Below are positions 1 to 32,583 of a DNA stretch of 64,000 nucleotides, piece by piece; position 1 is the first letter of the stretch, and each line of letters opens with the position of its first letter. The notes below the pieces were generated by a model that searched no databases, was not told the DNA's origin, and worked only from the letters and a program-made list of their open reading frames with translations. The stretch comes from Escherichia phage vB_Eco_mar004NP2. The stretch lies in sequence record NC_048205.1. One strand, given 5' to 3'. The translations under genes and the position numbers were made by a program.

Positions 1-240
1 ATATTTATATAAATTGATGAGGATTTCTCCTCATCATAGTTCACTAAGGTATTAGCTCGACCTAGGACTGGCTGCCAAAAAGCACGATCCCTACGATTCG
101 GGAGGAGTTCTAGATTAGTCCACTAGATTCAGCGGCAACTGAATAGTGTATTGGGTTTGCGAGATGACGCGGTTCCTTCCGCTCGAAGCGAAGGTGCTGT
201 AGTTACGCCGAGCTAATAGCCTTAGTAAACTAAAGAATTT

Positions 241-1623: not shown

Positions 1624-1636
1624 AGTAAAGAATTAT

Positions 1637-1712: not shown

Positions 1713-1718
1713 AATACT

Positions 1719-1794: not shown

Positions 1795-1801
1795 AATTAA
1801 T

Positions 1802-1876
1802 GCGTGATTAGTTCAGTGGCTAGAATAACTGGCTTCCAACCAGTAGACACGAGTTCGACTCTCGTATCCCGCACCA
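1802..1876 (+). tRNA. tRNA, probable Gly (anticodon UCC)
   Basis: anticodon stem-loop ACTGG-CTTCCAA-CCAGT, T-arm ACGAG-TTCGACT-CTCGT, CCA; one U-C mismatch in acceptor stem. Confidence 0.45.
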
Positions 1877-1890
1877 AATAAGGAAACACT

Positions 1891-2142: not shown

Positions 2143-2298
2143 CAACCTAAAAGTAAAGATTGATAAACAAAAGAAACGTGTAGAAGTAGAGATTGGTGAA
2201 GAACGTGTTGGCTTTACTTTTGAATTTCTACAGCAAATGGCAATGGCAGTTATGACTGATAAGTCTCCTGTTATTGAAAAAGAAATCCCGTTGAAATA
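2136..2298 (+). CDS. hypothetical small protein, 54 aa (not in ORF track)
   Basis: ATG overlapping upstream stop; followed by hairpin CCCGTTGAAATAACGGG. Confidence 0.3.
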
Positions 2299-2309
2299 AC
2301 GGGATCATC

Positions 2310-2384
2310 GCTCCTAAAGCATTGCTGGCGATGCAGTTGCCTTGTAAGCATCTGAACCGGGTTCGATTCCTGGTGGGAGCACCA
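2310..2384 (+). tRNA. tRNA, probable Thr (anticodon UGU)
   Basis: acceptor GCTCCTA/TGGGAGC, D-stem GCAT/ATGC, anticodon loop CTTGTAA, T-arm TTCGATT, CCA. Confidence 0.5.
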
Positions 2385-2399
2385 AATTTAAAAATTCAT

Positions 2400-2428
2400 T
2401 TGCCTTCTCTCTTATTTATTGTTATAAT
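2400..2428 (+). promoter_or_regulatory. sigma70 early promoter (-35 TTGCCT, 17 bp, -10 TATAAT) with conserved leader TATAAATTAATGAGAGG
   Basis: consensus hexamers and spacing; leader shared with other promoters in window. Confidence 0.6.
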
Positions 2429-2458
2429 ATTTATATAAATTAATGAGAGGGAAACCAA

Positions 2459-2749
2459 ATGAAACGTTATCTTTCTATTGTATTCCAAACTGGTGGTCAA
2501 AGATATACCTATGAATTTCCATCTTCTTGGAAAATCAAAGAAGGTGATCAAGTAGTAGTGTTAACACCGCGTGAAGGGTATAAAGTAGTAATGGTTAAAC
2601 AAGTATTCCCAAAAGATCATGAACCAGCTAAAGGCATTCGCTATAAGATGATTCATGGTGTGGTCCGTCAAGTACCACGAACTGAGGTAGAAGTAGATAA
2701 GACTGGAGAAACTAAATTCCATTATACTTCTTACTTAGATAGTGTGTGA
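2459..2749 (+). CDS. hypothetical protein, 96 aa
   Basis: ATG 8 nt after GAGAGGG in promoter leader. Confidence 0.6.
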   Translation: MKRYLSIVFQTGGQRYTYEFPSSWKIKEGDQVVVLTPREGYKVVMVKQVFPKDHEPAKGIRYKMIHGVVRQVPRTEVEVDKTGETKFHYTSYLDSV

Positions 2750-2764
2750 TGTAAATATTCTAAT

Positions 2765-2841
2765 ACTTCGGTAGCTTAGCGATCTAAAGCACCCGGCTGA
2801 TAACCGAGAGATCGGGGGTTTAAATCCCTCCCGGAGTACCA
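2765..2841 (+). tRNA. tRNA, probable Ile (anticodon GAU)
   Basis: acceptor ACTTCGG/CCGGAGT, D-stem GCTT/AAGC, anticodon loop CTGATAA, T-loop TTTAAAT, CCA. Confidence 0.45.
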
Positions 2842-2936
2842 AATTTAGGAATTAAGACTATGCGTCCAGGAAAGTTTAAAAAAGCTAATTGGTCTAAAGA
2901 GTATAAAGAATACTTACTTAGTCTAGTAAAACATAA

Positions 2937-3013
2937 CAGTTAGTTGGCAGAGTGGTTATGCACCTCCTTCATACGGAGCGACTACAGTGGTTCAAATCCA
3001 CTACTAACTACCA
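2937..3013 (+). tRNA. tRNA with CAU anticodon (Met or Ile2)
   Basis: perfect acceptor AGTTAGT/ACTAACT, anticodon loop TTCATAC, T-arm AGTGG-TTCAAAT-CCACT, CCA. Confidence 0.5.
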
Positions 3014-3050
3014 TTAAAATAGCTAGAGATAGCTAAATTTAGGAGCAGCT

Positions 3051-3245
3051 ATGTTAACAATTAAAATAATGTCAGCCAAGAATGGTGAACATATCCATAC
3101 AGGCAAAAGCGTAAGCTTTAATCCTAGAAATAAGAGATTGGCTATAGTTGGAGTAGATCAAGCCATCTTTTTAAAAGAAGATGAAGTAGCATACGTCATG
3201 AACCAAACTGGTAAGACAGTTTCCGTATACTATGGAAAAGTATAA
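3051..3245 (+). CDS. hypothetical protein, 64 aa
   Basis: ATG after TAGGAGCAGCT RBS. Confidence 0.5.
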   Translation: MLTIKIMSAKNGEHIHTGKSVSFNPRNKRLAIVGVDQAIFLKEDEVAYVMNQTGKTVSVYYGKV

Positions 3246-3287
3246 AGAATAAAGAGCTGAGCCAAATTCTAGCATCGTGGAGATCTA

Positions 3288-3656
3288 ATGAAAGCATATC
3301 AAAATCTTAAGTCTGGCGTAATTAATCTTGTTCATGATAATCAGATTATTCAACTGTACTCTAAAAATGGCGAACTTAAACAAAAAGTTCTGGTTGAGGA
3401 TCTAGAGGGTATTACACCCCATTTTGACCCCGAGTCCTTTCGTGAAGTCAAGGTGGAAGTCGCCCCTCAAATTGAAGGTGGTCAGCACCTAAATGTCAAT
3501 GTGTTAAGTCGTGATCAGCTTTTGGATGCACAGAAACATCCTGAAAAATACCCTCAATTAACTATCCGTGTTTCAGGGTACGCTGTGCGTTTTAACGCAC
3601 TGACGCGTGAACAGCAGAACGACGTTATTAGTCGTACATTTACTCAGGCGATGTAA
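3288..3656 (+). CDS. autonomous glycyl-radical cofactor (GrcA/YfiD-like spare-part protein)
   Basis: C-terminal [31 protein letters not shown] matches the glycyl-radical signature RVSGYAV of pyruvate formate-lyase C-terminus and GrcA. Confidence 0.6.
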
Positions 3657-3737
3657 TGGGGCTTGGATACGGTTTCTACGAACTACGTAAGGTAGTCGAG
3701 CAAACTCCATTTATCTCCCAAGTTTTAGGAGAAATGT

Positions 3738-4052
3738 GTGGATCGAGCATTAAGACGTCATCACCGGCAACGTGTAAAGAACAACCGCAAGAAGTATTGG
3801 ACAGTCTTCCCACATGAAGAAAGCCCTAAACGGTTAGGTATTATCACTACTACTCCTTGTATCTGTTCTTGTTGGATGTGCGGGAATCCTCGCAAATACT
3901 TTAAGAATAGTAAAGCAGGGATGAAAACCTCGGAGATTAGGAAAATGGAAGCAATGATTACGGATATTTCAAATGATGAATTTGATGGCTTTGTAGGATT
4001 CGGAGAAGGAATTAGCTCAGGCTGTTTCGAAGATGTACGCCCCGATTTGTAA
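3738..4052 (+). CDS. hypothetical Cys-rich basic protein, 104 aa (GTG start)
   Basis: GTG start 6 nt after TAGGAGAAAT; followed by terminator. Confidence 0.45.
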   Translation: MDRALRRHHRQRVKNNRKKYWTVFPHEESPKRLGIITTTPCICSCWMCGNPRKYFKNSKAGMKTSEIRKMEAMITDISNDEFDGFVGFGEGISSGCFEDVRPDL

Positions 4053-4061
4053 TTAATAACA

Positions 4062-4097
4062 AACCCCAGCTATTGAATAGGTAGTCTGGGGTTTTTC
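4062..4097 (+). terminator. rho-independent terminator
   Basis: hairpin AACCCCAG...CTGGGGTT followed by TTTTT. Confidence 0.6.
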
Positions 4098-4173
4098 TGT
4101 ATACAGGTAGATAATTTATGTATAATAAAATTCATCCACATTAGGTTAATTTAAAAAACTTAATGGAGGTAAT

Positions 4174-4521
4174 ATGAGCCGTACTTATCGTAAACAATCT
4201 GGTGATCAGTGGTGGAAGTCTAAAGAACAATTCTCTCAAGAATATTCTTTCATCAAAGAAAATGGCTACTGGATTCGTGTTATTTATGCCAAATCTTGGG
4301 ACGACATCAAAAAAGAAATGAAGGAAGCAACCATTCGTAATGAGAAAAAGGATGGTTATAACTGGAATTCTGTTAGTAAGAATGTTAAGTGGCATTCTAA
4401 TAAAATGGTTCGTCAAGGGAATCGTCAAGAACTCCACCGCGTGATGAAAGATCCAGAAAATTACGACTATAATCGCGATCATGACATGCGTAAGCGTGGA
4501 TTATGGTGGTGCTACGACTAA
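4174..4521 (+). CDS. hypothetical protein, 115 aa
   Basis: ATG after GGAGGTAAT RBS. Confidence 0.55.
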   Translation: MSRTYRKQSGDQWWKSKEQFSQEYSFIKENGYWIRVIYAKSWDDIKKEMKEATIRNEKKDGYNWNSVSKNVKWHSNKMVRQGNRQELHRVMKDPENYDYNRDHDMRKRGLWWCYD

Positions 4522-4538
4522 TTTCTGAAATAATTCAT

Positions 4539-4568
4539 TTGCTAAACCTCTCTTTTCTTGTTATAATA
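4539..4568 (+). promoter_or_regulatory. sigma70 early promoter (-35 TTGCTA, -10 TATAAT) plus conserved leader
   Basis: hexamers with 18-bp spacer; leader TTTATAAATTGATGGGAGAGG. Confidence 0.6.
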
Positions 4569-4597
4569 TATTTATAAATTGATGGGAGAGGTTTGAA

Positions 4598-4879
4598 ATG
4601 AAAACTCGTCTAGACTGTGCTATCCACGTTGTCGAGCATAGTGTTGTTGGAACCTGTATGTCTTACCATGAGGCAGGTCGCTTAATTAAAGAACGTGTGG
4701 CAGATGTATGTGGATTGAAGATTACTGCTGAGGAAGCTGATGATCTTTTAGGCCAAGCACTTGAGAAAACCGAAATATTCCTCTGTGATTCTTGTTCTTG
4801 GTGGTGTGAAGCTCACGAACATTCCTTCAATGATTATGATGTATGCCGTGACTGTAATGAGGAAGATACTGATGAATAA
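4598..4879 (+). CDS. hypothetical Cys-rich protein, 93 aa
   Basis: ATG after promoter leader RBS. Confidence 0.55.
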   Translation: MKTRLDCAIHVVEHSVVGTCMSYHEAGRLIKERVADVCGLKITAEEADDLLGQALEKTEIFLCDSCSWWCEAHEHSFNDYDVCRDCNEEDTDE

Positions 4880-5171
4880 GTTTATTATTGCATTGATGGT
4901 TTCGGCAGTTAGTTTCGGTTCTCTAGCATCTACCAAAGTTTTTATGAAAAATGGCAATGTTAAAGTACAACAGAACGGCATTATTACCGAGTATGGTAAA
5001 GTTCGTGATGTTAAGGAACGTAACGGCAAAGTAGAAATATATACTAATAAAAACTTCTCTACTCCGGCTGTTACTGTTAGCAAACGTGGTGAGATAACTA
5101 CTCAACGTACTAATAGCTCTAGTTCTTTTACTTGTCGTTATGATTGCGACTTTGAAGGTGAAGATGAATAA
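4872..5171 (+). CDS. secreted/periplasmic small protein with N-terminal signal peptide, 100 aa
   Basis: start chosen at internal ATG (MNKFIIALMVSAVSFGSLAST...) overlapping upstream stop; track ORF 4761..5171 extends into the upstream gene. Confidence 0.45.
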   Translation: MNKFIIALMVSAVSFGSLASTKVFMKNGNVKVQQNGIITEYGKVRDVKERNGKVEIYTNKNFSTPAVTVSKRGEITTQRTNSSSSFTCRYDCDFEGEDE

Positions 5172-5559
5172 TTTAGACCCTAGAATTAAATTTGCAATTA
5201 CAGAAATCCAAGATCAAATTGATGAGGACTTCACTGTTTGGTCAAGGTCTGGTAATGGAGAATATTGCCAGCTTTATAGCATGAAAATGGGTATCTCAAT
5301 TGAGCTTAATATCAACTCTGAAGGTAGAGTAGAAGCCCAACCTATGTTTAGTATTCCAGGCTTCTCTGGATTTGTTGCAGGTATGAAATTGTGTCTACCA
5401 AATAACCATCTTCATCGAGTTATTTGTCAACTAGAGACTATTAAACACTTCTTACCAGAAGATAACATTAATGACCACTACCATGAAGTAGTAGCAGCTC
5501 ATATGATGAAAGAATGCAAACGTCGGAGAGAAGAACGTGAAAAAGCTAAACATCAATAG
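5164..5559 (+). CDS. hypothetical protein, 131 aa
   Basis: ATG after GAAGGTGAAG; start trimmed from track ORF 5140. Confidence 0.5.
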   Translation: MNNLDPRIKFAITEIQDQIDEDFTVWSRSGNGEYCQLYSMKMGISIELNINSEGRVEAQPMFSIPGFSGFVAGMKLCLPNNHLHRVICQLETIKHFLPEDNINDHYHEVVAAHMMKECKRRREEREKAKHQ

Positions 5560-5833
5560 CACAGTGCAGATTCCAGCAACTAAGGATATTTTAACATTCC
5601 TACGTAGTGAAAACACTCAGTTTTGGCACGACTATATTCAGGAAAATAAAAATAATCCAGATATAGTGGCTTTTGCCAAAACCCGTATTGGGGAATACAA
5701 AGATCCAGAAATTAAAGATGGCATGATTACTATGCAGTTATGGATAGCTATGAAAACATTTGGACCTACTATGAGTTTAGGATTTGCCCCTCTGTTTACT
5801 GATATTCTAATTAAGGAAAAGGATCTGAAATGA
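5537..5833 (+). CDS. hypothetical protein, 98 aa (GTG start)
   Basis: ORF with GGAGAGAAG upstream. Confidence 0.4.
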   Translation: MKKLNINSTVQIPATKDILTFLRSENTQFWHDYIQENKNNPDIVAFAKTRIGEYKDPEIKDGMITMQLWIAMKTFGPTMSLGFAPLFTDILIKEKDLK

Positions 5834-6114
5834 TTATCTCTCCATTTGCTCTTTGGTTCGTCATTGGGTCTATAGTTGCTATTTACAGCTTGATTGATGA
5901 TCTGTATATCTCTAAGAACAAAGATGTACTTTTATATGTTATACATAAAACACGTCCACTAGATCTAGCACCTCTTGACGATAAAACACTATTAAGATGT
6001 GGTATGTCTGTGCTATTTATTATGGATATTCTGCTAGGACCAGCATCTGTATTTTTCTATTACCGAAAAACTCGTAATATGAAAAAATTTAAAGCAGAAA
6101 TGCAGAATAATTAA
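5830..6114 (+). CDS. small membrane protein, 94 aa
   Basis: two hydrophobic segments; AAGGAAAAGG RBS. Confidence 0.5.
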   Translation: MIISPFALWFVIGSIVAIYSLIDDLYISKNKDVLLYVIHKTRPLDLAPLDDKTLLRCGMSVLFIMDILLGPASVFFYYRKTRNMKKFKAEMQNN

Positions 6115-6224
6115 AGAACTCGCGTAGGACCGAGTTGCGTCACCTGCAACTGTTACGGATAAGGGAGTCGTGCCCCTTAGTGCGGTAAGTGGTGAGTTGG
6201 TCGCTGACCTTAACTGGAGATGAT

Positions 6225-6569
6225 ATGACTATAGTATTAATTCTTGTTACCACTTGGTTTTTAATTGGTGCTGGGTATGCAGTAGCTGTACTTAGACATT
6301 TGGACGAATATTCTGCTGAATGGTTCATCAAATACCTTCGTATCGACAACAAGGAACATGAATTTAAAGATGAAAAGCAGAAAAAGGCAGTAGAGAAAAT
6401 GACAGCCAAAGAATGTTTATTCTACATGCGTATTATAGGATTCTTTGGGTTATTAATTGCTGGCCCAATTGGTTCTACTATTGCTCCGTACAAAGAAACA
6501 GTTGCTGACATCAAATTATGGAGAAATGCAGGGGTACTACGCAAAGCTAGAGAAACTAATATTACATAA
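6225..6569 (+). CDS. small membrane protein, 114 aa
   Basis: start at ATG after GGAG (track start 6189 lacks RBS); hydrophobic helices. Confidence 0.45.
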   Translation: MTIVLILVTTWFLIGAGYAVAVLRHLDEYSAEWFIKYLRIDNKEHEFKDEKQKKAVEKMTAKECLFYMRIIGFFGLLIAGPIGSTIAPYKETVADIKLWRNAGVLRKARETNIT

Positions 6570-6613
6570 GATTGACACTAAGTCAACTTACTAGCAAAAG
6601 CAAATAATGACAA

Positions 6614-6650
6614 AGCCCAGCCTGCACTTTTGCGACTGGGCTATTTTTGT
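6614..6650 (+). terminator. rho-independent terminator
   Basis: hairpin GCCCAGC...CTGGGC followed by TATTTTTGT. Confidence 0.6.
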
Positions 6651-6663
6651 AATAAAATTTTAG

Positions 6664-6692
6664 TTGCATAGATGCCCAAACTTTTGTATAAT
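6664..6692 (+). promoter_or_regulatory. sigma70 early promoter (-35 TTGCAT, 17 bp, -10 TATAAT)
   Basis: consensus hexamers immediately after terminator. Confidence 0.55.
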
Positions 6693-6723
6693 ATACTCAT
6701 AGATTGAGGCAATAGGATTAAAT

Positions 6724-7422
6724 ATGAGAATCATTTCTAAATTCGCAGATGTGTATGATTTGCAGAACAGTTTGTTTGATCCCGATCGTGTTTGGGAGCG
6801 TAAAACTGAAGAGTTACTAGTTAAGGTAACTGATGATGCAGAAAAGAACATTGTGCATACTCGCCAAGTATTTCGTGAGGGTTCACTATCTTTCCGTGGT
6901 GACTTCGAATACTTCGTAAACCCACTGTTTATTGCAGGTGAAGTTTACTGGCTACACGAGCTGTACTGCTGGCACCCAGCATTTAGTTTCAAAACGTTCA
7001 ACCTCGACACTATGTTCGATAAAATGGAAGAGATGGGATTGCATGCTCGCTCCTACTTAATGGATAAGAGTCGTGGAGATGTTCGTGAAACAATGCGTGA
7101 TTTGCTCGTTGAAGCAAAACCTAAAGCAGAACGTATCTTGTCCGAACTGCGTGTACCGATTGCATATGTGAAAGGTATTAAGAAGAACGATAACGATGAT
7201 GTTCGTAACTTCGTGATTCAGACTAACATTCGTTTCCATCAGTCAGGTATTCCGTGGCAGGAAATTGAAAGTAACTTATACCGTTTACACCAGATGATCG
7301 AGCAATATATCTGGGGCGTATTAGGAACCGGTGAACCAGATACTATTACCACTTCCGATAAGGATCGCTTAGCTGCATATGGATTTGATATTGTTACTTC
7401 TTTTAGGAATATGAAAAGATGA
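6724..7422 (+). CDS. hypothetical protein, 232 aa
   Basis: long ORF after promoter, RBS AATAGGATTAAAT. Confidence 0.6.
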   Translation: MRIISKFADVYDLQNSLFDPDRVWERKTEELLVKVTDDAEKNIVHTRQVFREGSLSFRGDFEYFVNPLFIAGEVYWLHELYCWHPAFSFKTFNLDTMFDKMEEMGLHARSYLMDKSRGDVRETMRDLLVEAKPKAERILSELRVPIAYVKGIKKNDNDDVRNFVIQTNIRFHQSGIPWQEIESNLYRLHQMIEQYIWGVLGTGEPDTITTSDKDRLAAYGFDIVTSFRNMKR

Positions 7423-7916
7423 TCAGTAAGGAAGAGCTAAGAAGGATGTTCGATTACCGAGATGATGGTAATCTTATCTGGAAACCCAGGGAAGGGGACG
7501 AACACTTTAATAAGATATTCGCCGGAACAGTAGCAGGATCTAGACAAAGTACAGGACATAGAGTAGTTGAGCTGTATAATGGTTCCCTAGCTATAGGTAC
7601 ACATAGATTAATCTATGCATGGCATACTGGAGAATGGCCAGAAATAGTTGACCATAAGGATAAAGACTCAACTAATGATAGGTTTGAGAACCTAAGACCT
7701 GCTACAAGATCTGATAACGCTTGTAATCAAAAAGTAAGAAGCGACAACCATTTAGGCGTTAAAAATATTCATAGAAAAACAAATGGGACTTACCAAGTAA
7801 GAATCACTAAACATGGTAAGCAAGTTTCGAAAACACTTAAGAGTTTGGAAGAGGCCATAGAATGGAGAGACGCCAAACTTAAAGAACTCCACGGTGAGTT
7901 TGCGAGTACAGGCTGA
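7419..7916 (+). CDS. HNH homing endonuclease with AP2-type DNA-binding domain
   Basis: HNH motif region HRLIYAWHTGEWPEIVDHKDKDSTNDRFENLRPATRSDNACN followed by AP2-like GVKNIHRKTNGTYQVRITKHGK. Confidence 0.65.
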   Translation: MISKEELRRMFDYRDDGNLIWKPREGDEHFNKIFAGTVAGSRQSTGHRVVELYNGSLAIGTHRLIYAWHTGEWPEIVDHKDKDSTNDRFENLRPATRSDNACNQKVRSDNHLGVKNIHRKTNGTYQVRITKHGKQVSKTLKSLEEAIEWRDAKLKELHGEFASTG

Positions 7917-8359
7917 TGTGGAAATGGTTTGTAGACTTAGTTTGGGATAATAAGATGTATATCCTGGGAGCAGGTCTAGCGATAGGCATCGGATTCGGTG
8001 CTTATCACTTAGTTAATAAGGTTGAGACTCTAGCAGGTGATCTTGCAGCAGCTACTAAAAAGATCTCTTCTCTAGAAACCTCCCTTAATAATGTGAGGGC
8101 TGAGAGTGAACTTCGTGAGACTCGAATGAATCAGTATTTCACAATGAATAATGTTTCGCAAGCAGATCTAGACAAGAAAATTAATCAGCTTGATAAAGCA
8201 CTTAGTCGTCAAGATATTATAGCTGCAAAGCCTGGATTGGTTACATTAATTGCTAAAAAGCAGAGTAAGGAGTTCGAGGAAAGATTAGCATGTTTAACTG
8301 GAAACTTGGAATACTGCTCGCAGCCGCAATCACAATCACAGGCTGTGCACAAGAAATAA
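7916..8359 (+). CDS. membrane-anchored coiled-coil protein (possible i-spanin-like)
   Basis: N-terminal TM helix then coiled-coil-like region; 3' end overlapped by a lipoprotein gene. Confidence 0.4.
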   Translation: MWKWFVDLVWDNKMYILGAGLAIGIGFGAYHLVNKVETLAGDLAAATKKISSLETSLNNVRAESELRETRMNQYFTMNNVSQADLDKKINQLDKALSRQDIIAAKPGLVTLIAKKQSKEFEERLACLTGNLEYCSQPQSQSQAVHKK

Positions 8360-8643
8360 AGCCAGAACCTACCCATGAACTACCAACAGCTCATGTGGAC
8401 TGGCCTAAAGGACTTCAACCTTGTAGCTTTGATTTCAAATTTGAAAAGAAATTAGCTACAAACGGTGAAGATGGTGTAGTAGTAGTCGTACCATATAAAG
8501 ATTGGAATATGTTGGCAAAATGCCGCGAGGCAGAATATTCATATATCTCACGACTGACAAGTATGGTTTGCTTCTACCGCCAAGATTTGCAAGAAAAACG
8601 TTGTTTAGTATATTATCCACCAATTAACAATAGGAAAGATTAA
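8290..8643 (+). CDS. lipoprotein (possible o-spanin-like), 117 aa
   Basis: signal peptide with lipobox ITGC; gene starts inside upstream ORF in another frame. Confidence 0.4.
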   Translation: MFNWKLGILLAAAITITGCAQEIKPEPTHELPTAHVDWPKGLQPCSFDFKFEKKLATNGEDGVVVVVPYKDWNMLAKCREAEYSYISRLTSMVCFYRQDLQEKRCLVYYPPINNRKD

Positions 8644-9395
8644 TGTCAGTATTAGTCGGTTTACATGGTGAAGCTGGTTCGGGAAAAGATACCGTTGCAA
8701 AATTAATTATCGATTGGTGTAATGACACGTATCCAACGTGTTTACCCCGTCGTTACAGTTTTGCCAAGCCCGTTTATGAACTTGCATCTGTAATCCTCGG
8801 TGTAACTCCAGAGTTTCTAGGAGAGCGCAGGGGAAAAGAGATTGACCAATGGTTTACGGTCACACAATCTCAATTGGAGCGAGCTAGAGACGTATGGTTT
8901 AAATACGGTATCGATAAGTTTGAAGACTTCTCGTACGTTTGGCCGATTTTTGAGGAAAAATATCTTAATCCTCAACAACTTATCTCAGAGAATAAAGAAG
9001 ACGGACTTTATAGTTTATTTATTTCTCCGAGAAAAATGTTACAGCTCGTAGGGACAGAGCTAGGAAGGCAGCTGGTACATGAACGCATTTGGCTCATAAT
9101 TCTGGAGCAATCCATCGCTAAAGACGACCCAGATGTCGCCGTAATAACAGATGTGAGATTCCCCAATGAAGGAGAGCTACTCAGAGAAACAAACCATTTA
9201 GATATGGATTCTTTGATAGTAAATGTAGTACCAGCTGAGCAGAAGTTCACTATTAAATCAGATCATCCATCTGAAAGTGGTATTCCTGCAAAATATATTA
9301 CTCACGAATTAGTTAATAAATTCGATGGTATCAATAACCTTAAACTAGAAGTTTATAACTTCTGTGACTTAGAGCTAGAACCACTAGTTGGATAA
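8643..9395 (+). CDS. deoxynucleoside monophosphate kinase (P-loop)
   Basis: N-terminal P-loop GLHGEAGSGKDT; size 250 aa matches T5-type dNMP kinase. Confidence 0.55.
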   Translation: MSVLVGLHGEAGSGKDTVAKLIIDWCNDTYPTCLPRRYSFAKPVYELASVILGVTPEFLGERRGKEIDQWFTVTQSQLERARDVWFKYGIDKFEDFSYVWPIFEEKYLNPQQLISENKEDGLYSLFISPRKMLQLVGTELGRQLVHERIWLIILEQSIAKDDPDVAVITDVRFPNEGELLRETNHLDMDSLIVNVVPAEQKFTIKSDHPSESGIPAKYITHELVNKFDGINNLKLEVYNFCDLELEPLVG

Positions 9396-9407
9396 TCAAG
9401 GATCGCT

Positions 9408-10007
9408 ATGACTAATAAAAAAGAAGAAAAGACTAACCTGTTTCACTCCATTCGCCAATCTAATGAGTATACCTTTTTCTTTGATGAAGAACTCGGTCCG
9501 CCGGATGAATACCGTGATTTATCAATGGTACTTATGCAAGCAAATGAGGACGACGAAATTAATCTGATGATTAATGGTCCAGGTGGTTATGTTGATACTG
9601 CTGCACAGTTATCTAACTTAATTGCTAATTGCCGTGGAACAGTTATAGGACATCTGGTTGGTCCTAGTGCTTCTGCTTACTGCACAATTTTCCTATCCTG
9701 TCATGGATGGGTAGTACATCCACATGCTACGCTAATGGGACACACGTTCTCTGGCGGATTCTGTGAGAAAGGTCAAGAAATCAAGAAAGCCTATGAATCT
9801 TACAACAAGTTCGTAGAAGATATGATGCTAGATGTCTACTATCCGTTCTTCTCAATAGATGAAATAGACGAGATGGTAAAAGACAACAAAAATATCTATC
9901 TAGATAGCAAGGAAATCCATAAGCGTATTGAAATCTTGGCGAAATATAGATCTGAGCAATATAATAAAATGCAGTTAACTCAATCTGAGGAGCACAACGA
10001 AGAGTAA
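9408..10007 (+). CDS. ClpP-like serine protease
   Basis: LMINGPGGYV motif resembling ClpP INSPGG; 199 aa. Confidence 0.45.
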   Translation: MTNKKEEKTNLFHSIRQSNEYTFFFDEELGPPDEYRDLSMVLMQANEDDEINLMINGPGGYVDTAAQLSNLIANCRGTVIGHLVGPSASAYCTIFLSCHGWVVHPHATLMGHTFSGGFCEKGQEIKKAYESYNKFVEDMMLDVYYPFFSIDEIDEMVKDNKNIYLDSKEIHKRIEILAKYRSEQYNKMQLTQSEEHNEE

Positions 10008-10017
10008 GTAATTTTAA

Positions 10018-10047
10018 GCCAGGGTTAAGTACCCTGGCTTTTCTTTT
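10018..10047 (+). terminator. rho-independent terminator
   Basis: hairpin GCCAGGGT-TAAGT-ACCCTGGC plus TTTTCTTTT. Confidence 0.65.
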
Positions 10048-10109
10048 ATCTAAAATTCTTCTTGACAACGACATAATTTTATGCTCCAAGTGTAACATTT
10101 AAAAACCCA

Positions 10110-10138
10110 TTGAAATTTTCCTCCAAAATTAGTATAAT
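10110..10138 (+). promoter_or_regulatory. sigma70 promoter (-35 TTGAAA, 17 bp, -10 TATAAT) for the lysis cassette
   Basis: hexamers and spacing; followed by GAGGAGG RBS. Confidence 0.5.
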
Positions 10139-10163
10139 GGTACTGGTTAGAGGAGGTTACAAA

Positions 10164-10820
10164 TTGGAAAAGTTCTTACAATTATTAACAGTACTGCTCC
10201 AAGAAGCGAAAGACCCAGCATCGCTTCTTAAACGTCTGCTAACTATCTTAGTTGCTGTCATTATTTTCTTATTTGTTAGTAATACTAGTGAAGTAATGTC
10301 ATTCTTAAAGACTTTTTCCACGTCTGCAGTTTTACAGGATTTACAAACCCAGAGGATAGATAACTTCCCTAATGTGGCGAGGGAAAAGAGCATGGTTCTC
10401 TTCTCTCAGACGGGTGCAGATGCTGTTTTTGTAGTCAAGTATAAACCAGATGCTATCAATGATTATTCCAATATTATTGCATGGGAAAGTAATGCGCAAT
10501 TAGATAGGGCTGACTTGGCCGATAAAGCGGTAAATAAAACGTCTGAATTATACAGACGTCATTTAGAGGGCTTTAACTACGCATCGGATTTAAGTGTAAG
10601 AGTAAATAAATATATGGGGTTAAATATACCTGCGTTTAAAAACGTTACTTTTAATTACATATACACTTGTCCATACTTCAATCTAAAAAATATCTATGCT
10701 GGGTACATTGGTATTGCTTGGAAAGATAATCCGGTAGATACAGCTGATTCTGAACAGTTCAAGGAATATTTAGCAAAGCTCTGTTCCCCACAACAGAGAT
10801 CTTTAGGTAGGTCAATATGA
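10164..10820 (+). CDS. holin (218 aa, TTG start inferred)
   Basis: TTG 7 nt after GAGGAGG; single TM helix (LLTILVAVIIFLFV); immediately upstream of endolysin; the track ATG at 10110 lies inside the promoter. Confidence 0.5.
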   Translation: MEKFLQLLTVLLQEAKDPASLLKRLLTILVAVIIFLFVSNTSEVMSFLKTFSTSAVLQDLQTQRIDNFPNVAREKSMVLFSQTGADAVFVVKYKPDAINDYSNIIAWESNAQLDRADLADKAVNKTSELYRRHLEGFNYASDLSVRVNKYMGLNIPAFKNVTFNYIYTCPYFNLKNIYAGYIGIAWKDNPVDTADSEQFKEYLAKLCSPQQRSLGRSI

Positions 10821-11230
10821 GTTTTAAATTTGGTAAAAATAGCGAAAAACAATTAGCTACCGTTAAGCCCGAGCTACAAAAAGTAGCTCGTAGGGCTTTA
10901 GAATTATCTCCGTATGATTTCACAATCGTGCAAGGTATTCGTACAGTAGCACAAAGTGCCCAGAACATTGCTAATGGTACTTCATTTCTAAAAGATCCTA
11001 GTAAAAGCAAACATATTACTGGGGATGCTATTGATTTTGCTCCATATATTAATGGCAAAATTGATTGGAATGACTTAGAAGCATTTTGGGCGGTTAAAAA
11101 GGCTTTTGAACAAGCTGGTAAAGAACTAGGCATTAAACTTCGTTTTGGTGCTGATTGGAATGCTTCAGGAGACTATCACGATGAAATAAAACGTGGTACC
11201 TATGATGGCGGTCATGTCGAACTAGTTTAA
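10817..11230 (+). CDS. endolysin, L-alanyl-D-glutamate peptidase type
   Basis: 137 aa with conserved His/Asp metal ligands (HITGDAIDF ... DGGHVE); matches size of T5 endolysin. Confidence 0.7.
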   Translation: MSFKFGKNSEKQLATVKPELQKVARRALELSPYDFTIVQGIRTVAQSAQNIANGTSFLKDPSKSKHITGDAIDFAPYINGKIDWNDLEAFWAVKKAFEQAGKELGIKLRFGADWNASGDYHDEIKRGTYDGGHVELV

Positions 11231-11241
11231 TTAATAACTGA

Positions 11242-11265
11242 GGCGGGAATATTCCCGCCTTTTTA
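11242..11265 (+). terminator. rho-independent terminator
   Basis: hairpin GGCGGGAATATTCCCGCC plus TTTTT. Confidence 0.7.
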
Positions 11266-11307
11266 GGCAAAGGGGGCTTTAATAATTTTTGAAGATAGGA
11301 GAAAGCC

Positions 11308-11724
11308 ATGTTTGCAGAACTATTCACTATGATGCTGCTAGGTATCTGGAAAATAAGTCTAGTAGTATTCGTTTTAATGATAGTCTTTACTATCATTGCA
11401 TTAACTACCCGAAATAGCTTATTAATAAAGGTTATTCACGGACTAGAGTATATAATTATGGGTTCATTCGGCGTTTGTAAATGCAATTGCCATAGAGATA
11501 CGAAATATTGTTGGTTATGGATGGAACTAGAGAATCCCATATCCATAGCTTTGGCTGTTTCATTCGGTATGATTCTTATGGCCCTTACTCTAGCATTAAT
11601 ACCTTTAATGTTAGCTGGGGGAGTTACAGCGTATTTCACCCTTTTCTCCCCGATACTTATGTACTCAATTTACCCAATAACTATGTATCTAGTTAGGAAA
11701 AGATTTATACATGCAGTAGATTAA
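11308..11724 (+). CDS. multi-pass membrane protein, 138 aa
   Basis: several hydrophobic helices; RBS GATAGGAGAAAG. Confidence 0.5.
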   Translation: MFAELFTMMLLGIWKISLVVFVLMIVFTIIALTTRNSLLIKVIHGLEYIIMGSFGVCKCNCHRDTKYCWLWMELENPISIALAVSFGMILMALTLALIPLMLAGGVTAYFTLFSPILMYSIYPITMYLVRKRFIHAVD

Positions 11725-11737
11725 GATAAAAAAGTAG

Positions 11738-11766
11738 TTGACTTTTAGCCCTAGTTATTATATAAT
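11738..11766 (+). promoter_or_regulatory. sigma70 early promoter (-35 TTGACT, 17 bp, -10 TATAAT) with conserved leader
   Basis: hexamers; leader ACATAAATTAGTTAAGAGAGG. Confidence 0.6.
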
Positions 11767-11799
11767 ATATACATAAATTAGTTAAGAGAGGTATATATT

Positions 11800-12231
11800 A
11801 TGTCTGATCGTTTCTACACTCAAATGGCGGAACATTTTCGTATACCACATTACGAGCTAAACATTGCACTCCGTGATCATGACTCTCCTGAGTACAAAAA
11901 GCTCGAAAAGAAAGCGGAAAAATCTATTGATACAAAGGTAGGTGCATCTATGTCTAAGGGCAAAAAGTTAACTCGTCTTGATCTTAATAAAATTTTAACT
12001 GAACTTTTGGGTACTGATATTGAAGGTGCTAAATTACCACTTCTTGTACTAGAGACTATGATTAAAAAGGTCAAAAATAAAGAATATAAGAAGGTAGAAG
12101 TCCCAGAGGGCAGATTAAAGGCTCCTTATCAGGAAGCATTAACCGAGTGTTTGGGTGTAAATCTTGATCTGAGCACCGCAACCGTAAAAACTATGAAAAA
12201 CTTCTTAGAGGCCATTAATAACTATGAGTAA
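11800..12231 (+). CDS. hypothetical protein, 143 aa
   Basis: ATG after AAGAGAGG. Confidence 0.55.
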   Translation: MSDRFYTQMAEHFRIPHYELNIALRDHDSPEYKKLEKKAEKSIDTKVGASMSKGKKLTRLDLNKILTELLGTDIEGAKLPLLVLETMIKKVKNKEYKKVEVPEGRLKAPYQEALTECLGVNLDLSTATVKTMKNFLEAINNYE

Positions 12232-12514
12232 ATTAGTCTATCTATTAAAAGGTTCCACCTGTAACCCGTGTAAACTTTTCGAGCCAGTATTTGATAAAGT
12301 AGTCAGTGACTATAATTTGGAAATCCATAAAGAGACTGATAATACAGAATTAATGCAGAAATTTGGTGTGCGCCAAGTTCCTGTAGTAGTTCTGGCGGAT
12401 CGCTTACCTAATGGTCGAGTAGAAGCTAATCATATTCTGATTGGACGTCAGCTTCGTAAAGAAACTATGCACGAAGCTATTAAAAATTTCCTGGATGATA
12501 ATCCAGAGGACTAA
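12224..12514 (+). CDS. thioredoxin/glutaredoxin-like protein (CxxC)
   Basis: CNPC motif near N-terminus, 96 aa. Confidence 0.45.
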   Translation: MSKLVYLLKGSTCNPCKLFEPVFDKVVSDYNLEIHKETDNTELMQKFGVRQVPVVVLADRLPNGRVEANHILIGRQLRKETMHEAIKNFLDDNPED

Positions 12515-12521
12515 TAAACAA

Positions 12522-12554
12522 AGCCTGATCTTAGCTGATCAGGCTTTTATTTTA
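12522..12554 (+). terminator. rho-independent terminator
   Basis: hairpin AGCCTGATC-TTAG-CTGATCAGGCT plus TTTTATTTT. Confidence 0.7.
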
Positions 12555-12556
12555 CT

Positions 12557-12584
12557 TGCTTTTTGCTAAAAATTTTGGTATAAT
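12557..12584 (+). promoter_or_regulatory. sigma70 early promoter (-35 TTGCTT, 16 bp, -10 TATAAT) with conserved leader
   Basis: hexamers; leader TTATATAAATTGATGAAAAGG. Confidence 0.55.
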
Positions 12585-12641
12585 ACTTATATAAATTGAT
12601 GAAAAGGCTATCTACACACTACAAGAAATAGGGGTATTCCA

Positions 12642-13019
12642 ATGAACTATGCATATCTAATTATTAATAATAACGTAGTTTGTGGTACTCGCGCCGTTGA
12701 GATGGGTATTACAGAAGAAAAGTATAAGTCACTTCCAGAAAAGGAACAACAATATTATGTTGAAGAAGCTGCTTGGGAATATGCTGATGTTTATCCCGAA
12801 CAGCGTGAAGATCGCGTTACTATTGTTGTCTCTTTGGGGCTGGTTGGCTGTGATACCGAAGTTGATACAGACCTAGAGACTTTAGAAGAGTGGGGAGAAT
12901 TAGACATTTCAGCTAAAAACTCTTTAATCCGTGAGGCTTTTTGGGAAGCAGTTGACTGCCATGTTGTCTTTGAGCCTAACGATGAGGAAGCTGAGAAGCA
13001 TACTAACCACTGGGGATAA
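12642..13019 (+). CDS. hypothetical acidic protein, 125 aa
   Basis: ORF after promoter. Confidence 0.55.
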   Translation: MNYAYLIINNNVVCGTRAVEMGITEEKYKSLPEKEQQYYVEEAAWEYADVYPEQREDRVTIVVSLGLVGCDTEVDTDLETLEEWGELDISAKNSLIREAFWEAVDCHVVFEPNDEEAEKHTNHWG

Positions 13020-13023
13020 TTAA

Positions 13024-13269
13024 ATGTTAGCGGAACAAGCAAAACGTTTAGCTAGGATAAATAGAGCTGCAATTCTTAAGAGCAGAAAGAAACCATATAA
13101 GTATGTTAAAAAGAGAATAGTTTCTTCTGTGGAGATTGGAGGTTCTTTTGTACAGTTTAATCGTGATGAAATTAGTTATGAAGCTATAAAAGCCCTCTAT
13201 AAAGAGGGTTATACTCTCCAACTATCTAATGAGTATGGCACAACTATTTTAACTGTTATTTGGGAATAA
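13024..13269 (+). CDS. hypothetical protein, 81 aa
   Basis: ORF track; tightly packed with neighbours. Confidence 0.45.
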   Translation: MLAEQAKRLARINRAAILKSRKKPYKYVKKRIVSSVEIGGSFVQFNRDEISYEAIKALYKEGYTLQLSNEYGTTILTVIWE

Positions 13270-13271
13270 TT

Positions 13272-14135
13272 ATGAAAAAAGAATTTAATGTACATAAAAC
13301 TCTAGTAGTGCCAGATGATGCCAACTTGTTTTTCGTTGGTGATATTCATGGATGCAATGATTTGCTGGAAGATGCGTTGAAATTAGCTGGGTATAATAGC
13401 AAGAAAGATTGCGTAGTATGTGTTGGTGACTTAATTGACCGGGGCACACAAAACTTACAAGTTTTAGCTAAATTCTTATATAATCCACGTTTTTGTAGCG
13501 TTCGTGGAAATCATGACCAGTTTATGATTGTAGGAGATTGGGCTAACTGGATGTATAATGGAGGTATGTGGGCTATGAATGAGCTGGACGCAGATACCAT
13601 TAAAAATATTGCCGAAGACATGGCTGAAAAACTTCCAGTATTTATGACTGTGCTGCATCGTGGCAAGAAGTATGGTGTTGTTCATGGTGGTGTACCTTTT
13701 ACATACAAAGAATGTGGTAACGAAGTAGAAACTCCAGTATGGGATAACCTTATTGCACAAGTAGAAGCAGCTAAGGAAGACCCACATGACCATCCTGGAT
13801 ACCATGTTGAACCATATTTATGGGATCGAGATGTAATACAAGAAATAGGCTTCCATTTGTCCAAAAATGGTGAGGAACACCCGTATTTCCAGCGTTATTC
13901 TGGGTTTAAAGAAAAATACATGGTAGAAATACCTCCAGTTAGTGGGGTAGACTTTGTGTTTCATGGGCATACTGGAGTACCTTACCCTATTTTACACCAA
14001 AATCGTGTTTACTTAGATACTGGCGGTGTTTTCAACGGGCAGTTGACGGTTGCGCAAGTTAATGATGAAACTGGCAAAATCACAACATTTACCACGCTTC
14101 GCGAAGATAGCTGTGGCATACAGAGGATTCTTTAA
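13272..14135 (+). CDS. Ser/Thr protein phosphatase (calcineurin-like metallophosphatase)
   Basis: motifs GDIHG, GDLIDRG, GNHD; ATG chosen instead of the track TTG at 13260. Confidence 0.7.
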   Translation: MKKEFNVHKTLVVPDDANLFFVGDIHGCNDLLEDALKLAGYNSKKDCVVCVGDLIDRGTQNLQVLAKFLYNPRFCSVRGNHDQFMIVGDWANWMYNGGMWAMNELDADTIKNIAEDMAEKLPVFMTVLHRGKKYGVVHGGVPFTYKECGNEVETPVWDNLIAQVEAAKEDPHDHPGYHVEPYLWDRDVIQEIGFHLSKNGEEHPYFQRYSGFKEKYMVEIPPVSGVDFVFHGHTGVPYPILHQNRVYLDTGGVFNGQLTVAQVNDETGKITTFTTLREDSCGIQRIL

Positions 14136-14656
14136 TGAAAGTCTGCTTTTGGAGCGATCTACACTTAGGACATGCAAATATTACTAAATTCAGACCAATC
14201 TTCTCTACTATGGAAGAGCATGATGAATTTATTATGGATACTATTACATCCATGAAAGATAAGCGTACAGTATTTTATATTTTAGGGGATGCATTTGTAT
14301 CTAGAAATGGTTTGGAGAAATTCGAAAAACTCTTTAGTAATGTTAGAACTACATTAGTTTTGGGGAACCACGACTTAGAACGAGAAGGGTTATCTTTCAA
14401 AGACTTAGTGGGAGTTGTAGATAACGTACAATCCCTAGTTAAGTATAAAAACTTTTGGCTTTCCCATGCTCCAGTACATCCAGAAGAGTTAAGGGGCAAG
14501 AAGAACTTACATGGGCATACTCACTTTGAGTTAATGGGGGACCCTCGTTATATTAACGTTTGTGTAGAGTATGCAAAATCACCAGTACGCCTGGAAGACA
14601 TCATGAATGGTAAGTACACTTCTCATGATAAAACTAGCTGGATGTTAAATGTCTAA
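14135..14656 (+). CDS. second metallophosphoesterase, 173 aa
   Basis: DLHLGH and GNHD motifs; TAATG start/stop overlap with upstream phosphatase. Confidence 0.55.
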   Translation: MKVCFWSDLHLGHANITKFRPIFSTMEEHDEFIMDTITSMKDKRTVFYILGDAFVSRNGLEKFEKLFSNVRTTLVLGNHDLEREGLSFKDLVGVVDNVQSLVKYKNFWLSHAPVHPEELRGKKNLHGHTHFELMGDPRYINVCVEYAKSPVRLEDIMNGKYTSHDKTSWMLNV

Positions 14657-14764
14657 GTATATAGCTGAGGTTATTATTAAACGAATTATACAGGCGATAG
14701 CAATACTTATAATCATTTGTATTGCTATTGGCACAGGATTAGGCATTTTAATTGAAAGTTTTAT

Positions 14765-14793
14765 TTGCTAAAATGCCTAAGTTTCTGTATAAT
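14765..14793 (+). promoter_or_regulatory. sigma70 early promoter (-35 TTGCTA, 17 bp, -10 TATAAT) with conserved leader
   Basis: hexamers; leader TTTATAAATTGATGAGAAGG. Confidence 0.6.
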
Positions 14794-14823
14794 TACTTTA
14801 TAAATTGATGAGAAGGAATCAAA

Positions 14824-15255
14824 ATGAACAAAGTTGATAAAGCTCTAGTTTTCACAGCAGCAGATAAGTTTGAACAAGTTAAGGCAACTTTCCGAACCTT
14901 GTTCCAGTCTTACGTTCAGGATAAGTCTAATCCTATCTCTGAACGTTTGATGGTCTGGGAATGTCATGCATGCAATGCCTTATTAATTGCTGATTATCGT
15001 AGCGATATAGATAAAGATCTGTGCGAAATTCTTATCGCTGAGGAGGCAGAACGTTATCAGTTAATCTCTTTCCAAGATTTGGCAGAGCATATCATTCCCG
15101 ATGATCTTTGGGATAAATACTATGGTGATCCTGAAGATGAAGGAATGACTCCAGAAGCATGCATTGAGCTGATCTGCAAAGATCATCCTGAAATTGCAGA
15201 GAAATTTGAAAAAGTTTTTGCTTCTGAGTTCTCCGGCGTTGTTAACGATTGGTAA
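14824..15255 (+). CDS. hypothetical acidic protein, 143 aa
   Basis: ATG after GAGAAGG. Confidence 0.55.
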   Translation: MNKVDKALVFTAADKFEQVKATFRTLFQSYVQDKSNPISERLMVWECHACNALLIADYRSDIDKDLCEILIAEEAERYQLISFQDLAEHIIPDDLWDKYYGDPEDEGMTPEACIELICKDHPEIAEKFEKVFASEFSGVVNDW

Positions 15256-15272
15256 GTAATTAAAAAATTCAG

Positions 15273-15301
15273 TTGCTTTAAGCCTTAAAATTCTGTATAA
15301 T
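15273..15301 (+). promoter_or_regulatory. sigma70 early promoter (-35 TTGCTT, 17 bp, -10 TATAAT) with conserved leader
   Basis: hexamers; leader TTCATAAATTAATGAGAGAGG. Confidence 0.6.
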
Positions 15302-15333
15302 AAGTTCATAAATTAATGAGAGAGGAAATTCTA

Positions 15334-15585
15334 ATGGAAAACATGACTAAAAATGAAATGGCTAACGTTCTGGCAATTCTCCTCGACATGCAGGGTTTTG
15401 AAGGCCAGCTCATGAAGATGTCTATTCCGGCAATGAAAAAGATGTACGATTCCCTGAATAAGAATGCTATGGCGTTCAACCTTGCAAAACAAGAAGCACG
15501 TTTTGCTAAAGAGCATCAGGCAACTGCCGAACGTCGTGCAGCATCTTTTGAGCGTGAAGTTAAGCAACTGAAAGGTAAGAAATAA
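15334..15585 (+). CDS. hypothetical protein, 83 aa
   Basis: start at ATG 8 nt after GAGAGG; the track start at 15316 is the ATG inside the conserved leader. Confidence 0.5.
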   Translation: MENMTKNEMANVLAILLDMQGFEGQLMKMSIPAMKKMYDSLNKNAMAFNLAKQEARFAKEHQATAERRAASFEREVKQLKGKK

Positions 15586-15750
15586 TGGAAAGAATATCCA
15601 TTTTTATGCTATCACTCCTTTTAGGAGTGTTAATATATAGTATAGTTTCTCTTCACACACGTTTAGCAGAACTAGACAATTCTATCCACGAGTTAAATGT
15701 GGAGTTGTGTAAACTAGTTCCAAACAATGAAAAATGTAAGGATATTTAAT
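15586..15750 (+). CDS. small TM/coiled-coil protein, 54 aa (not in ORF track)
   Basis: TAATGG overlap with upstream stop; hydrophobic N-terminus. Confidence 0.3.
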
Positions 15751-25712: not shown

Positions 25713-25994
25713 TAAATGATAGTGGTTCTCACTTAGGACGATAGTTTCTTATAGTTATTATTTCTATCGGTTACGATTTCTTATAATTATTATTTCTCAT
25801 TAATTTATAAGTATATTATATATCATGAAATAGTTAGTTGGCTAATGAGATTTTCCGTGATTAATAGTCTGCTAACAGTTCCGGCTGTTACAATCCACCA
25901 GCATGATTATCATCCTAGCAACTATTAGTCTGCTATCTTTCCGATGCATACTAACAAATAAAAGTCAATTAATTTATTTCATAAAATAAGTAGT

Positions 25995-32231: not shown

Positions 32232-32498
32232 TTACAGGTAATTAGATTGCTCTAGTTTAAATTTACAATCACCATATTTAAGGTCAAACTGACTGAGATC
32301 CCACCACCCAAATTTAGTACGGAGCTGTACTACTGGAAAGCGATCTCCCTTAATACGAACTTTTTGAACCTTGAGACCGTAATATTCTTCTCCCGCACCA
32401 CCAAAAGATTTTACAAATCCCGTACAAAATGGTTTGGGAGCAGGTACACAACCAGATAATATAACTGTGGCAACTAGTGCAATTACAAACTTTTTCAT
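32232..32498 (-). CDS. llp: Llp-like lipoprotein (receptor-blocking superinfection-exclusion type)
   Basis: signal peptide with lipobox LSGC; small size; adjacent and antisense to the receptor-binding protein gene as in T5. Confidence 0.5.
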   Translation of the reverse strand: MKKFVIALVATVILSGCVPAPKPFCTGFVKSFGGAGEEYYGLKVQKVRIKGDRFPVVQLRTKFGWWDLSQFDLKYGDCKFKLEQSNYL

Positions 32499-32583
32499 AT
32501 TTATCTCTCCATTTCTAATTTATGAATTTATTATAGCAAAATAGAGGGATGAAAGCAAATACATTTTTATAATAGGAGATTAT

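Follow-up and report, generated by a model that had tools for sequence, protein, structure and literature searches.

The stretch analyzed here (the window) consists of 64,000 nucleotides of Escherichia phage vB_Eco_mar004NP2 (NC_048205.1), one strand, and carries repeated copies of a promoter in which TATAAT is followed, after six bases, by ATAAATT at the start of the transcribed leader. The copies within the range covered by a preliminary description of this sequence (2400-15334) sit in a tRNA and early-gene region, with nine tRNA genes at 241-3013. Bases 2000-16000 displayed 99.8% identity to Salmonella phage SPLA5b and 94% identity to coliphage T5, in which the counterpart lies at 15.6-29.1 kb on the opposite strand. 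On these identities the window can be placed in Tequintavirus, the host of its closest relative being Salmonella, unlike T5. In the repeated element we recognize the classic strong early promoter that T5 shares with its relatives, and the main finding is in this respect already known.

Six promoters had been reported at 2400, 4539, 11738, 12557, 14765 and 15273. These positions are the first bases of the -35 hexamers, with 12557 corrected to 12556, and the corresponding TATAAT hexamers start at 2423, 4562, 11761, 12579, 14788 and 15296. A partial copy had also been placed at the beginning of the window, where bases 1-22 are a cut ortholog of the T5 promoter P13b and align with it base for base. 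Two further exact copies, 32535(-) and 25820(-), lie beyond the range described earlier. The estimate of at least eight copies therefore held, with eight exact copies plus the degenerate 6687(+) and the cut copy. The features are as follows, with all +1 positions predicted (SD, Shine-Dalgarno sequence; ORF, open reading frame; aa, amino acids).

1..36, + strand: cut promoter copy (promoter part, bases 1-22), ortholog of T5 P13b; -10 hexamer cut to its final 2 bases; discriminator; +1 at base 9 and ATAAATTGATGAGGA, then a 5' hairpin (GATGAGGA-TTTC-TCCTCATC); heads a stable RNA and tRNA-Ala/Leu, with no ORF.
2400..2461, + strand: P2423; -35 TTGCCT 2400-2405; -10 TATAAT 2423-2428; +1 2435; ATAAATT 2435-2441; in-leader ATG 2443 (out of frame, 23 aa); SD GAGAGGG 2444-2450; true ATG 2459 (96-aa ORF); ortholog annotated as 'putative promoter' in the T5 record.
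4539..4600, + strand: P4562; -35 TTGCTA 4539-4544; -10 4562-4567; +1 4574; ATAAATT 4574-4580; in-leader ATG 4582 (4 aa); SD GGGAGAGG 4583-4590; true ATG 4598 (93-aa ORF).
6664..6726, + strand: P6687, degenerate member; -35 TTGCAT; -10 TATAAT 6687-6692; +1 6699; ATAGATT (1 mismatch); no in-leader ATG; true ATG 6724 (232-aa ORF).
11738..11802, + strand: P11761; -35 TTGACT; -10 11761-11766; +1 11773; ATAAATTAGTTAAGAGAGG, without in-leader ATG; ATG 11800 (143-aa ORF).
12520..12644, + strand: P12579; terminator hairpin 12520-12547, then -35 TTGCTT 12556-12561; -10 12579-12584; +1 12591; in-leader ATG 12599 (10 aa); first gene at +52 (12642).
14765..14826, + strand: P14788, ortholog of T5 'promoter P-F 30'; -35 TTGCTA; -10 14788-14793; +1 14800; in-leader ATG 14808 (9 aa); SD GAGAAGGA; true ATG 14824 (143-aa ORF).
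15273..15336, + strand: P15296; -35 TTGCTT; -10 15296-15301; +1 15308; SD GAGAGAGGA; true ATG 15334 (83 aa); in-leader ATG 15316, in frame, giving a spurious 89-aa call.
25802..25845, - strand: TATAAT-N6-ATAAATTAATGAG copy, 25820(-); poor -35 TTAGCC with 19-bp spacer; no ORF behind; within the non-coding part of pre-early DNA.
32496..32558, - strand: P32535(-); -35 TTGCTT 32558-32553; -10 32535-32530; +1 32523; ATAAATTAGAAATGGAGAG; true ATG 32498.

At the six sites reported earlier (hereafter the listed sites) the -35 hexamers TTGCCT, TTGCTA, TTGACT, TTGCTT, TTGCTA and TTGCTT are each followed by a 17-bp spacer and TATAAT. The T5 early class was defined by a TTGCTT/TTGACA-like -35, a TATAAT -10 and a spacer of 17 (rarely 18) bp; the listed sites, 6687 and 32535(-) scored at least 11/12 as promoters with a 17-bp spacer, and 25820(-), which fails on its -35, might act as a weak promoter or be a relic. 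Most copies carry an A-rich block (AAAAATTCA or ATAAAAAAG) upstream of the -35, in agreement with the consensus of the T5-like phage AKFV33. The gap after TATAAT, earlier given as about 7 nt, is exactly 6 nt to the A of ATAAATT and 5 nt to the pyrimidine that precedes it. P32535(-) precedes the gene of a Cor/Llp-type superinfection-exclusion lipoprotein (32232-32498, -), divergent from a receptor-binding tail protein gene; for the other genes behind the promoters, PHROGs profiles returned no function.

The family was best defined as TATAAT-N6-ATAAATT. The 17-mer leader consensus of the preliminary description was rejected for this purpose as too strict: it matched exactly at one site, and the other five listed sites were recovered with 1-2 mismatches (7 matches compared to 0.67 expected, one of them on the other strand). 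TATAAT-N6-ATAAATT had 8 exact matches in the window compared to 0.02 expected, with none of 100 shuffles giving even 2, and 9 matches with at most one mismatch compared to 0.78 expected, 6687(+) being the copy added. A scan with a generic sigma-70 consensus was uninformative (58 window matches, 64 in shuffles). That figure, together with the composition of the window (38-40% G+C, with intergenic DNA higher in A/T), is what could be said for the copies being chance products of A/T-rich intergenic DNA. Such an origin is refuted by the match statistics and by the ortholog comparison given below, and we attach next to no probability to it: every copy but 25820(-) is in register with a good -35, the copies are conserved in orthologs, and they stand directly upstream of a protein gene, except for 25820(-) and the cut copy, which heads stable-RNA and tRNA genes.

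The T5 st0 record (AY692264) has promoter features orthologous to window 2400, 4539, 6664, 11738, 12556, 14765, 15273 and 1-22, among them P-F30 (window 14765) and P13b (window 1-22). We surveyed all annotated promoters in the first 81 kb of T5, of which 32 were strong. ATAAATT was present at +1..+7 exactly in 12 of these 32 and with at most one mismatch in 16, and the carriers include P-N25, P-F30, P-D/E33, P-K28a and P13b. The layout of PN25 is TATAAT-N6-ATAAATT-purine/SD-ATG, as in the window copies, and the proposal of a T5 PN25-type architecture in which the leader supplies the SD was thus borne out by the T5 annotations at the orthologous sites. Compared to the T5 early promoters (PN25, PF30, PD/E33, PK28a, P13b; Gentz and Bujard, 1985, as cited in PMC7472727) the copies have the same -35 and -10 hexamers with a 17-bp spacer, and share with them a 6-bp A/T discriminator, ATAAATT at +1..+7, a purine/SD leader and an ATG at about +25. 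The common variant in the window, TT(G/A)ATGAG, contains an ATG whereas PN25 (TTTGAGAG) has none; otherwise there is no substantial difference from PN25. A consensus from 32 promoters of AKFV33, a sister phage, consists of TTGCTw, TATAATA, AAAAATT at -43 and a '+1 region (TAAATT)' (PMC3326045), the same four blocks as in the window; in that paper the +1 block was seen as 'AT-richness' only, was not split from the SD and its conservation was not measured. The conservation downstream of +1, earlier called unusual, is therefore ordinary for T5-like phages, since it has already been published. Very little is at stake in the main finding, which rediscovers one of the best-studied promoter families; PN25 with its leader underlies the pQE/pDS expression vectors, and abortive initiation has been studied on it for decades.

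The start site was placed by comparison with PN25. A PN25 oligonucleotide, TATAATAGATTCAT, is numbered -12..+2 (PMC7472727), and +1 is therefore the A of ATAAATT. Transcription of the window copies should accordingly be predicted to start at 2435, 4574, 11773, 12591, 14800, 15308 and 32523(-), and early timing of the copies is inferred from their location in the early-gene region.

Conservation of the transcribed region was confined to its first bases. ATAAATT (+1..+7) was identical in all seven full copies and was the sole invariant part of the leader. The information content in these copies was 1.62 bit per position over +1..+8, close to the -10 (1.71) and -35 (1.56) hexamers, and lower in the discriminator (0.83), the spacer (0.69) and +21..+40 (0.45). 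Positions +8..+20 were degenerate but 83% purine, compared to 52% for the window strand, and contained a GAGG-type SD. Alignment of the copies, proposed earlier as a check of an 'invariant leader', thus recovered a shared +1..+7 and no fixed sequence over +8..+20, which is merely purine-rich.

The same division was found between orthologs when mean pairwise differences per region were calculated for six promoters in about 25 T5-like genomes from IMG/VR. The difference was 0.016 for the -35 hexamer, 0 for the -10 hexamer and 0.013 for +1..+7, compared to 0.098 for the discriminator, 0.078 for the spacer, 0.080 for +8..+13 and 0.131 for +14..+20. Bases flanking +1..+7 therefore vary 6-10 times more among these genomes. 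Purifying selection on +1..+7 is as strong as on the -35 and -10 elements, and beyond +7 it is the composition of the leader that is conserved, not its sequence. This selection, like the anatomy, match statistics and T5 orthology given above, is shown directly by the window and ortholog data. By separating an invariant +1..+7 from an SD block that is merely purine-rich, a split that published block swaps never made, the ortholog comparison shows which bases to mutate.

Selection on the region after +1, postulated in the preliminary description, is supported by the ortholog comparison and also by experiments on PN25, the source from which an effect of the leader on expression is taken. Replacement of PN25 +3..+20 (antiDSR) reduced full-length RNA to about one tenth and gave more abortive products (Kammerer et al., 1986, as summarized in PMC12464699), and across 43 PN25 leader variants the productive yield changed by up to 25-fold (Hsu et al., 2006, as summarized in PMC12464699). 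In the initial transcribed sequence purine content correlates with productive yield (PMC10911233). Leader mutations without effect on expression had been named as the outcome that would speak against selection; the PN25 work amounts to that experiment, and as leader changes altered output there (PMC12464699), the refutation failed. In the literature on T5 promoters the leader goes by two names, 'downstream sequence region' and initial transcribed sequence (Kammerer et al., 1986; Hsu et al., 2006, 2025).

The copies are very probably standard members of the T5 early class, strong sigma-70 promoters that are read by unmodified host RNA polymerase and have a leader in two modules, the mechanism at these copies being extrapolated from PN25. 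Each promoter would consist of an A-rich block near -43, TTGCTT or TTGACT, a 17-bp spacer, TATAAT and a 6-bp A/T-rich discriminator. Promoters of this strength would hold polymerase tightly in the open complex, making escape rate-limiting. The first module, +1..+7/8 (ATAAATTR), would be part of the promoter, as it is constrained like the hexamers and kept even without a following gene, and it would most likely tune late initiation, that is start-site choice, abortive cycling and promoter escape. The second module, the purine run at about +9..+20, would favor productive escape and hold the SD, the latter giving very short 5' untranslated regions with the start codon at +25..+28.

Conservation of the leader could instead serve the RNA, with AUAAAUU as an A/U-rich 5' element (S1 binding, translation enhancer, RNase E protection or targeting) that together with the SD makes an optimized 25-nt 5' untranslated region. 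A/U-rich tracts 5' of the SD act as translation enhancers. In six of the eight full promoter copies the ATG lies at +25..+28, 6-9 nt past GAGG, with the SD inside the purine run; among the listed sites, annotated start codons have this position in five of six, the exception being P12579 (+52). However, ATAAATT is also kept where no SD and ATG follow closely, at P13b and the cut copy (stable RNA and tRNAs), at P12579 and at T5 promoters whose leaders are 35-80 nt long, and +1..+7 is therefore not explained by translation alone. Moreover, the register of ATAAATT to the -10 is exact (6 nt) but its distance to the SD varies. We regard an RNA-level explanation as possible but doubtful; the two explanations are not exclusive, and an RNA role may add to the promoter role.

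The ATG within the leader is part of the same question. The leader had been described as containing ATGAG. Of the six listed sites, five have an ATG at +9..+11, as does the cut copy, and the one at 11773 has none. Where present it is preceded by eight A/U-rich bases without an SD, is out of frame at four sites (peptides of 4-23 aa) and is in frame at 15316 alone (89 compared to 83 aa). The in-leader ATG is thus a by-product of the common variant TTRATGAG and not a start codon. The warning that it misleads ORF callers proved correct, as the mechanical ORF list starts at 15316 (89 aa) while T5 and SPLA5b both annotate an 83-aa product from 15334. The phrog_3880 profile has 92 positions, of which the 83-aa product (window 15316-15585, +) aligns to 10-92, leaving nine extra N-terminal positions. 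For many members of phrog_3880 the in-leader ATG seems to have been taken as the start, and because of the nine extra positions we conclude that the wrong start has entered the databases. Gene callers and protein-family profiles therefore carry false N-terminal extensions from a leader ATG, the 89-aa and 83-aa products being an example.

Several points weigh against a promoter-level role of the leader as set out above. The PN25 swaps took +3..+20 as one block, leaving the effects of ATAAATT and the purine run, and of DNA and RNA, unseparated. The +1 position and the early class of the window copies are carried over from T5 and stay predictions here. An A/U-rich start followed by an SD also resembles a translation enhancer. 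Conservation between paralogs could stem in part from recombination between promoter copies (compare P12579) and not from independent selection. Finally, the window has strong promoters without an ATAAATT leader, at 10133 (holin), 18329, 20709 and 49990, and these are equally strong, so that the leader is not needed for strength as such. Because of them we regard the ATAAATT leader as the mark of a promoter class and not as a requirement for strength.

The restriction of the leader to one class is also the starting point for a further explanation, in which ATAAATT is a site for a phage factor that shuts off the early class or tells early from late promoters, or in which TATAAAT (-1..+6) acts as a -10-like element for sigma-70-dependent pausing close to the promoter. 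The strong promoter at 49990, which we take to be late and to correspond to T5 PG25, has no such leader, and the holin promoter has none either. Of the six listed sites, four have TATAAAT spanning +1. Early and late promoters differ at -5..+2, the region in which T5 gpT5.026 makes the contacts of polymerase weaker (PMC7472727). Against this, neither the palindrome nor the likeness to a -10 survives in copies that have C at -1, a by-eye search of the copies found no operator-like dyad common to all of them, no candidate binding protein was identified, and the same block is present in the pre-early-region copy 25820 and in the llp/cor copy 32535. We consider a factor or pause site improbable.

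The leader of the strong promoter at window 49967-50040 (+), which lacks ATAAATT, is ATTAAAGAGGAGAAATTAACTATGAG, a sequence found verbatim in papers using pQE/ASKA-type vectors. We take it to be the 'RBSII' (ribosome-binding site II) of such vectors, and its core AAAGAGGAGAAA presumably matches B0034, a synthetic ribosome-binding site in wide use. The B0034 site thus appears to have its origin in a T5 gene leader.

In 16 variants of P12579 (loci L208-L230) the DNA between -57 and about +10 was nearly identical, yet what followed was at least five different downstream sequences or genes, with the breakpoint inside the leader at about +10..+20. These alignments mark P12579 as the constant left border of a variable gene module in related phages. 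This observation bears on whether the family is kept by recombination, with promoter-plus-leader cassettes of about 70 bp serving as homology anchors for module swaps and copies homogenized by gene conversion, like the PeSL cassettes of T4-type phages. The terminator hairpin at 12520-12547 directly upstream of P12579 gives a PeSL-like composite (PMC2839356), and one ortholog of P4562 (L140, below) has a converted spacer that is exactly reverse-complementary to the leader. However, the other five promoters examined displayed no module swapping at the leader, and paralogs diverge freely in the -43 block, spacer and discriminator with only the functional blocks kept, a pattern of selection and not of recent copying. 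Nor does recombination explain why exactly +1..+7 is fixed, and we judge it rather unlikely as the reason for the conservation of the leader. The T4-type PeSL cassettes (PMC2839356, PMC4122927) are likewise repeated strong early promoters among small non-essential genes, and at P12579 terminator hairpin and promoter border a swapped gene module as in PeSL. There is, however, no sequence relationship, and composite and swapping occur at one window copy only: no other copy has a terminator hairpin directly upstream.

Two of the promoters, P2423 and P4562, lie inside hairpins. The reverse strand of P2423 was promoter-like in a weight-matrix scan, which led to imperfect palindromes of about 70 nt around both promoters:

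2395..2463, + strand: imperfect palindrome and predicted RNA hairpin around P2423, -25.2 kcal/mol, z -6.2.
4534..4602, + strand: imperfect palindrome and predicted RNA hairpin around P4562, -25.2 kcal/mol, z -6.1; geometry as at 2395-2463.

The 5' arm of each hairpin contains the -35 and spacer and the 3' arm the SD and AUG, with the predicted +1 at the tip. Since the 5' arms (2395-2416 and 4534-4557) end before the predicted +1 (2435 and 4574), a transcript from the embedded promoter would lack its 5' arm. None of 200 shuffles folded as well as either RNA, and the other six copies had z from -0.8 to +2.3. Raw folding energy did not single out the two hairpins in the window, as the higher G+C of coding DNA brings about 2.7% of 85-nt windows to -25 kcal/mol; the two stand out in composition-corrected tests only. 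In T5, pairing of a promoter's own arms gave -22 to -24 kcal/mol for the counterparts of P2423 and P4562 and for a third promoter, located before T5p088 (AY692264 38131-38197), compared to a mean of -8.9 (standard deviation 3.35) for non-cognate arms. Arm complementarity as a family-wide feature was rejected (permutation p = 0.17), with only these three T5 promoters standing out. An Rfam search returned tRNAs only.

The P4562 helix was examined in 13 variants, in which 97.5% of cells were paired and 2 pairs had double changes, with several A-to-G changes giving U-G pairs. Covariation was weak, its score being reached by 22 of 500 shuffles, and quasi-palindrome template switching could mimic compensatory change. 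The P2423 helix is conserved in orthologs, without covariation. In the ortholog of 4534-4602 at locus L140 (IMGVR_UViG_3300045988_054024) the spacer is the exact reverse complement of the leader, forming a perfect 23-bp inverted repeat with the -10 kept. The 5' hairpin of P13b (window 15-36) has an 8-bp tip that is GAGAAATC in T5 and inverted to GATTTCTC in the window. Both changes are signs of template-switch mutation at hairpins.

No + strand terminator was predicted within 1316-5355, so read-through transcripts carrying both arms are plausible. We tentatively propose a promoter-dependent translation gate, in which read-through RNA would have its SD and AUG locked in a helix of about 22 bp (or be cut by RNase III) and RNA from the embedded promoter would be translatable. 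The T4 genes e, soc, 49 and I-TevI have a promoter within a hairpin, and in their longer transcripts the ribosome-binding site is hidden (PMC3014915). The geometry is the same here, with a helix of about 22 bp, the 5' arm upstream of +1 and the 3' arm on the SD and AUG. In contrast to T4, where the promoter is a gp55 late promoter, the embedded promoter here is of the sigma-70 early type, and a gate, if there is one, would not separate early from late; moreover, the hairpin occurs in only 2 window copies (3 in T5) and is known here from predicted folds. A hairpin gate working from a sigma-70 early promoter has not been described for T5-like phages and is possibly new. If functional, hairpin-embedded promoters would give T5 early gene expression an additional, post-transcriptional level.

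Similar promoters were also found outside the T5-like phages. Phage contigs unrelated to them (IMG/VR L007, L053, L019, L054, L112, L124 and others) have families of consensus TTGACA-17-TATAAT promoters with ATAAATT after six bases, then an SD and ATG. Among the IMG/VR matches listed, with one ascertained match per locus removed, 9 of 131 strict consensus promoters had ATAAATT, in a collection-biased sample. The matches listed in the TTG-N20-TATAAT-N6-ATAAATT scan of IMG/VR mix T5-like with unrelated phages, and no frequencies can be derived from them. A fixed A/T-rich start common to the strong promoters of a phage may be widespread.

Two further observations concern the part of the window beyond the promoters described. 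In the ORF-free part of the pre-early region, near the 25820(-) copy, the 82 bp at 25629-25710 (-) hold three exact DnaA-box nonamers (TTATCCACA), and a fourth exact box lies at 22097 (+). The most stable 85-nt fold of the window, at 21741-21825 on both strands (-41.6 kcal/mol), consists of three adjoining perfect hairpins and is near the position corresponding to the T5 'injection stop signal' region.

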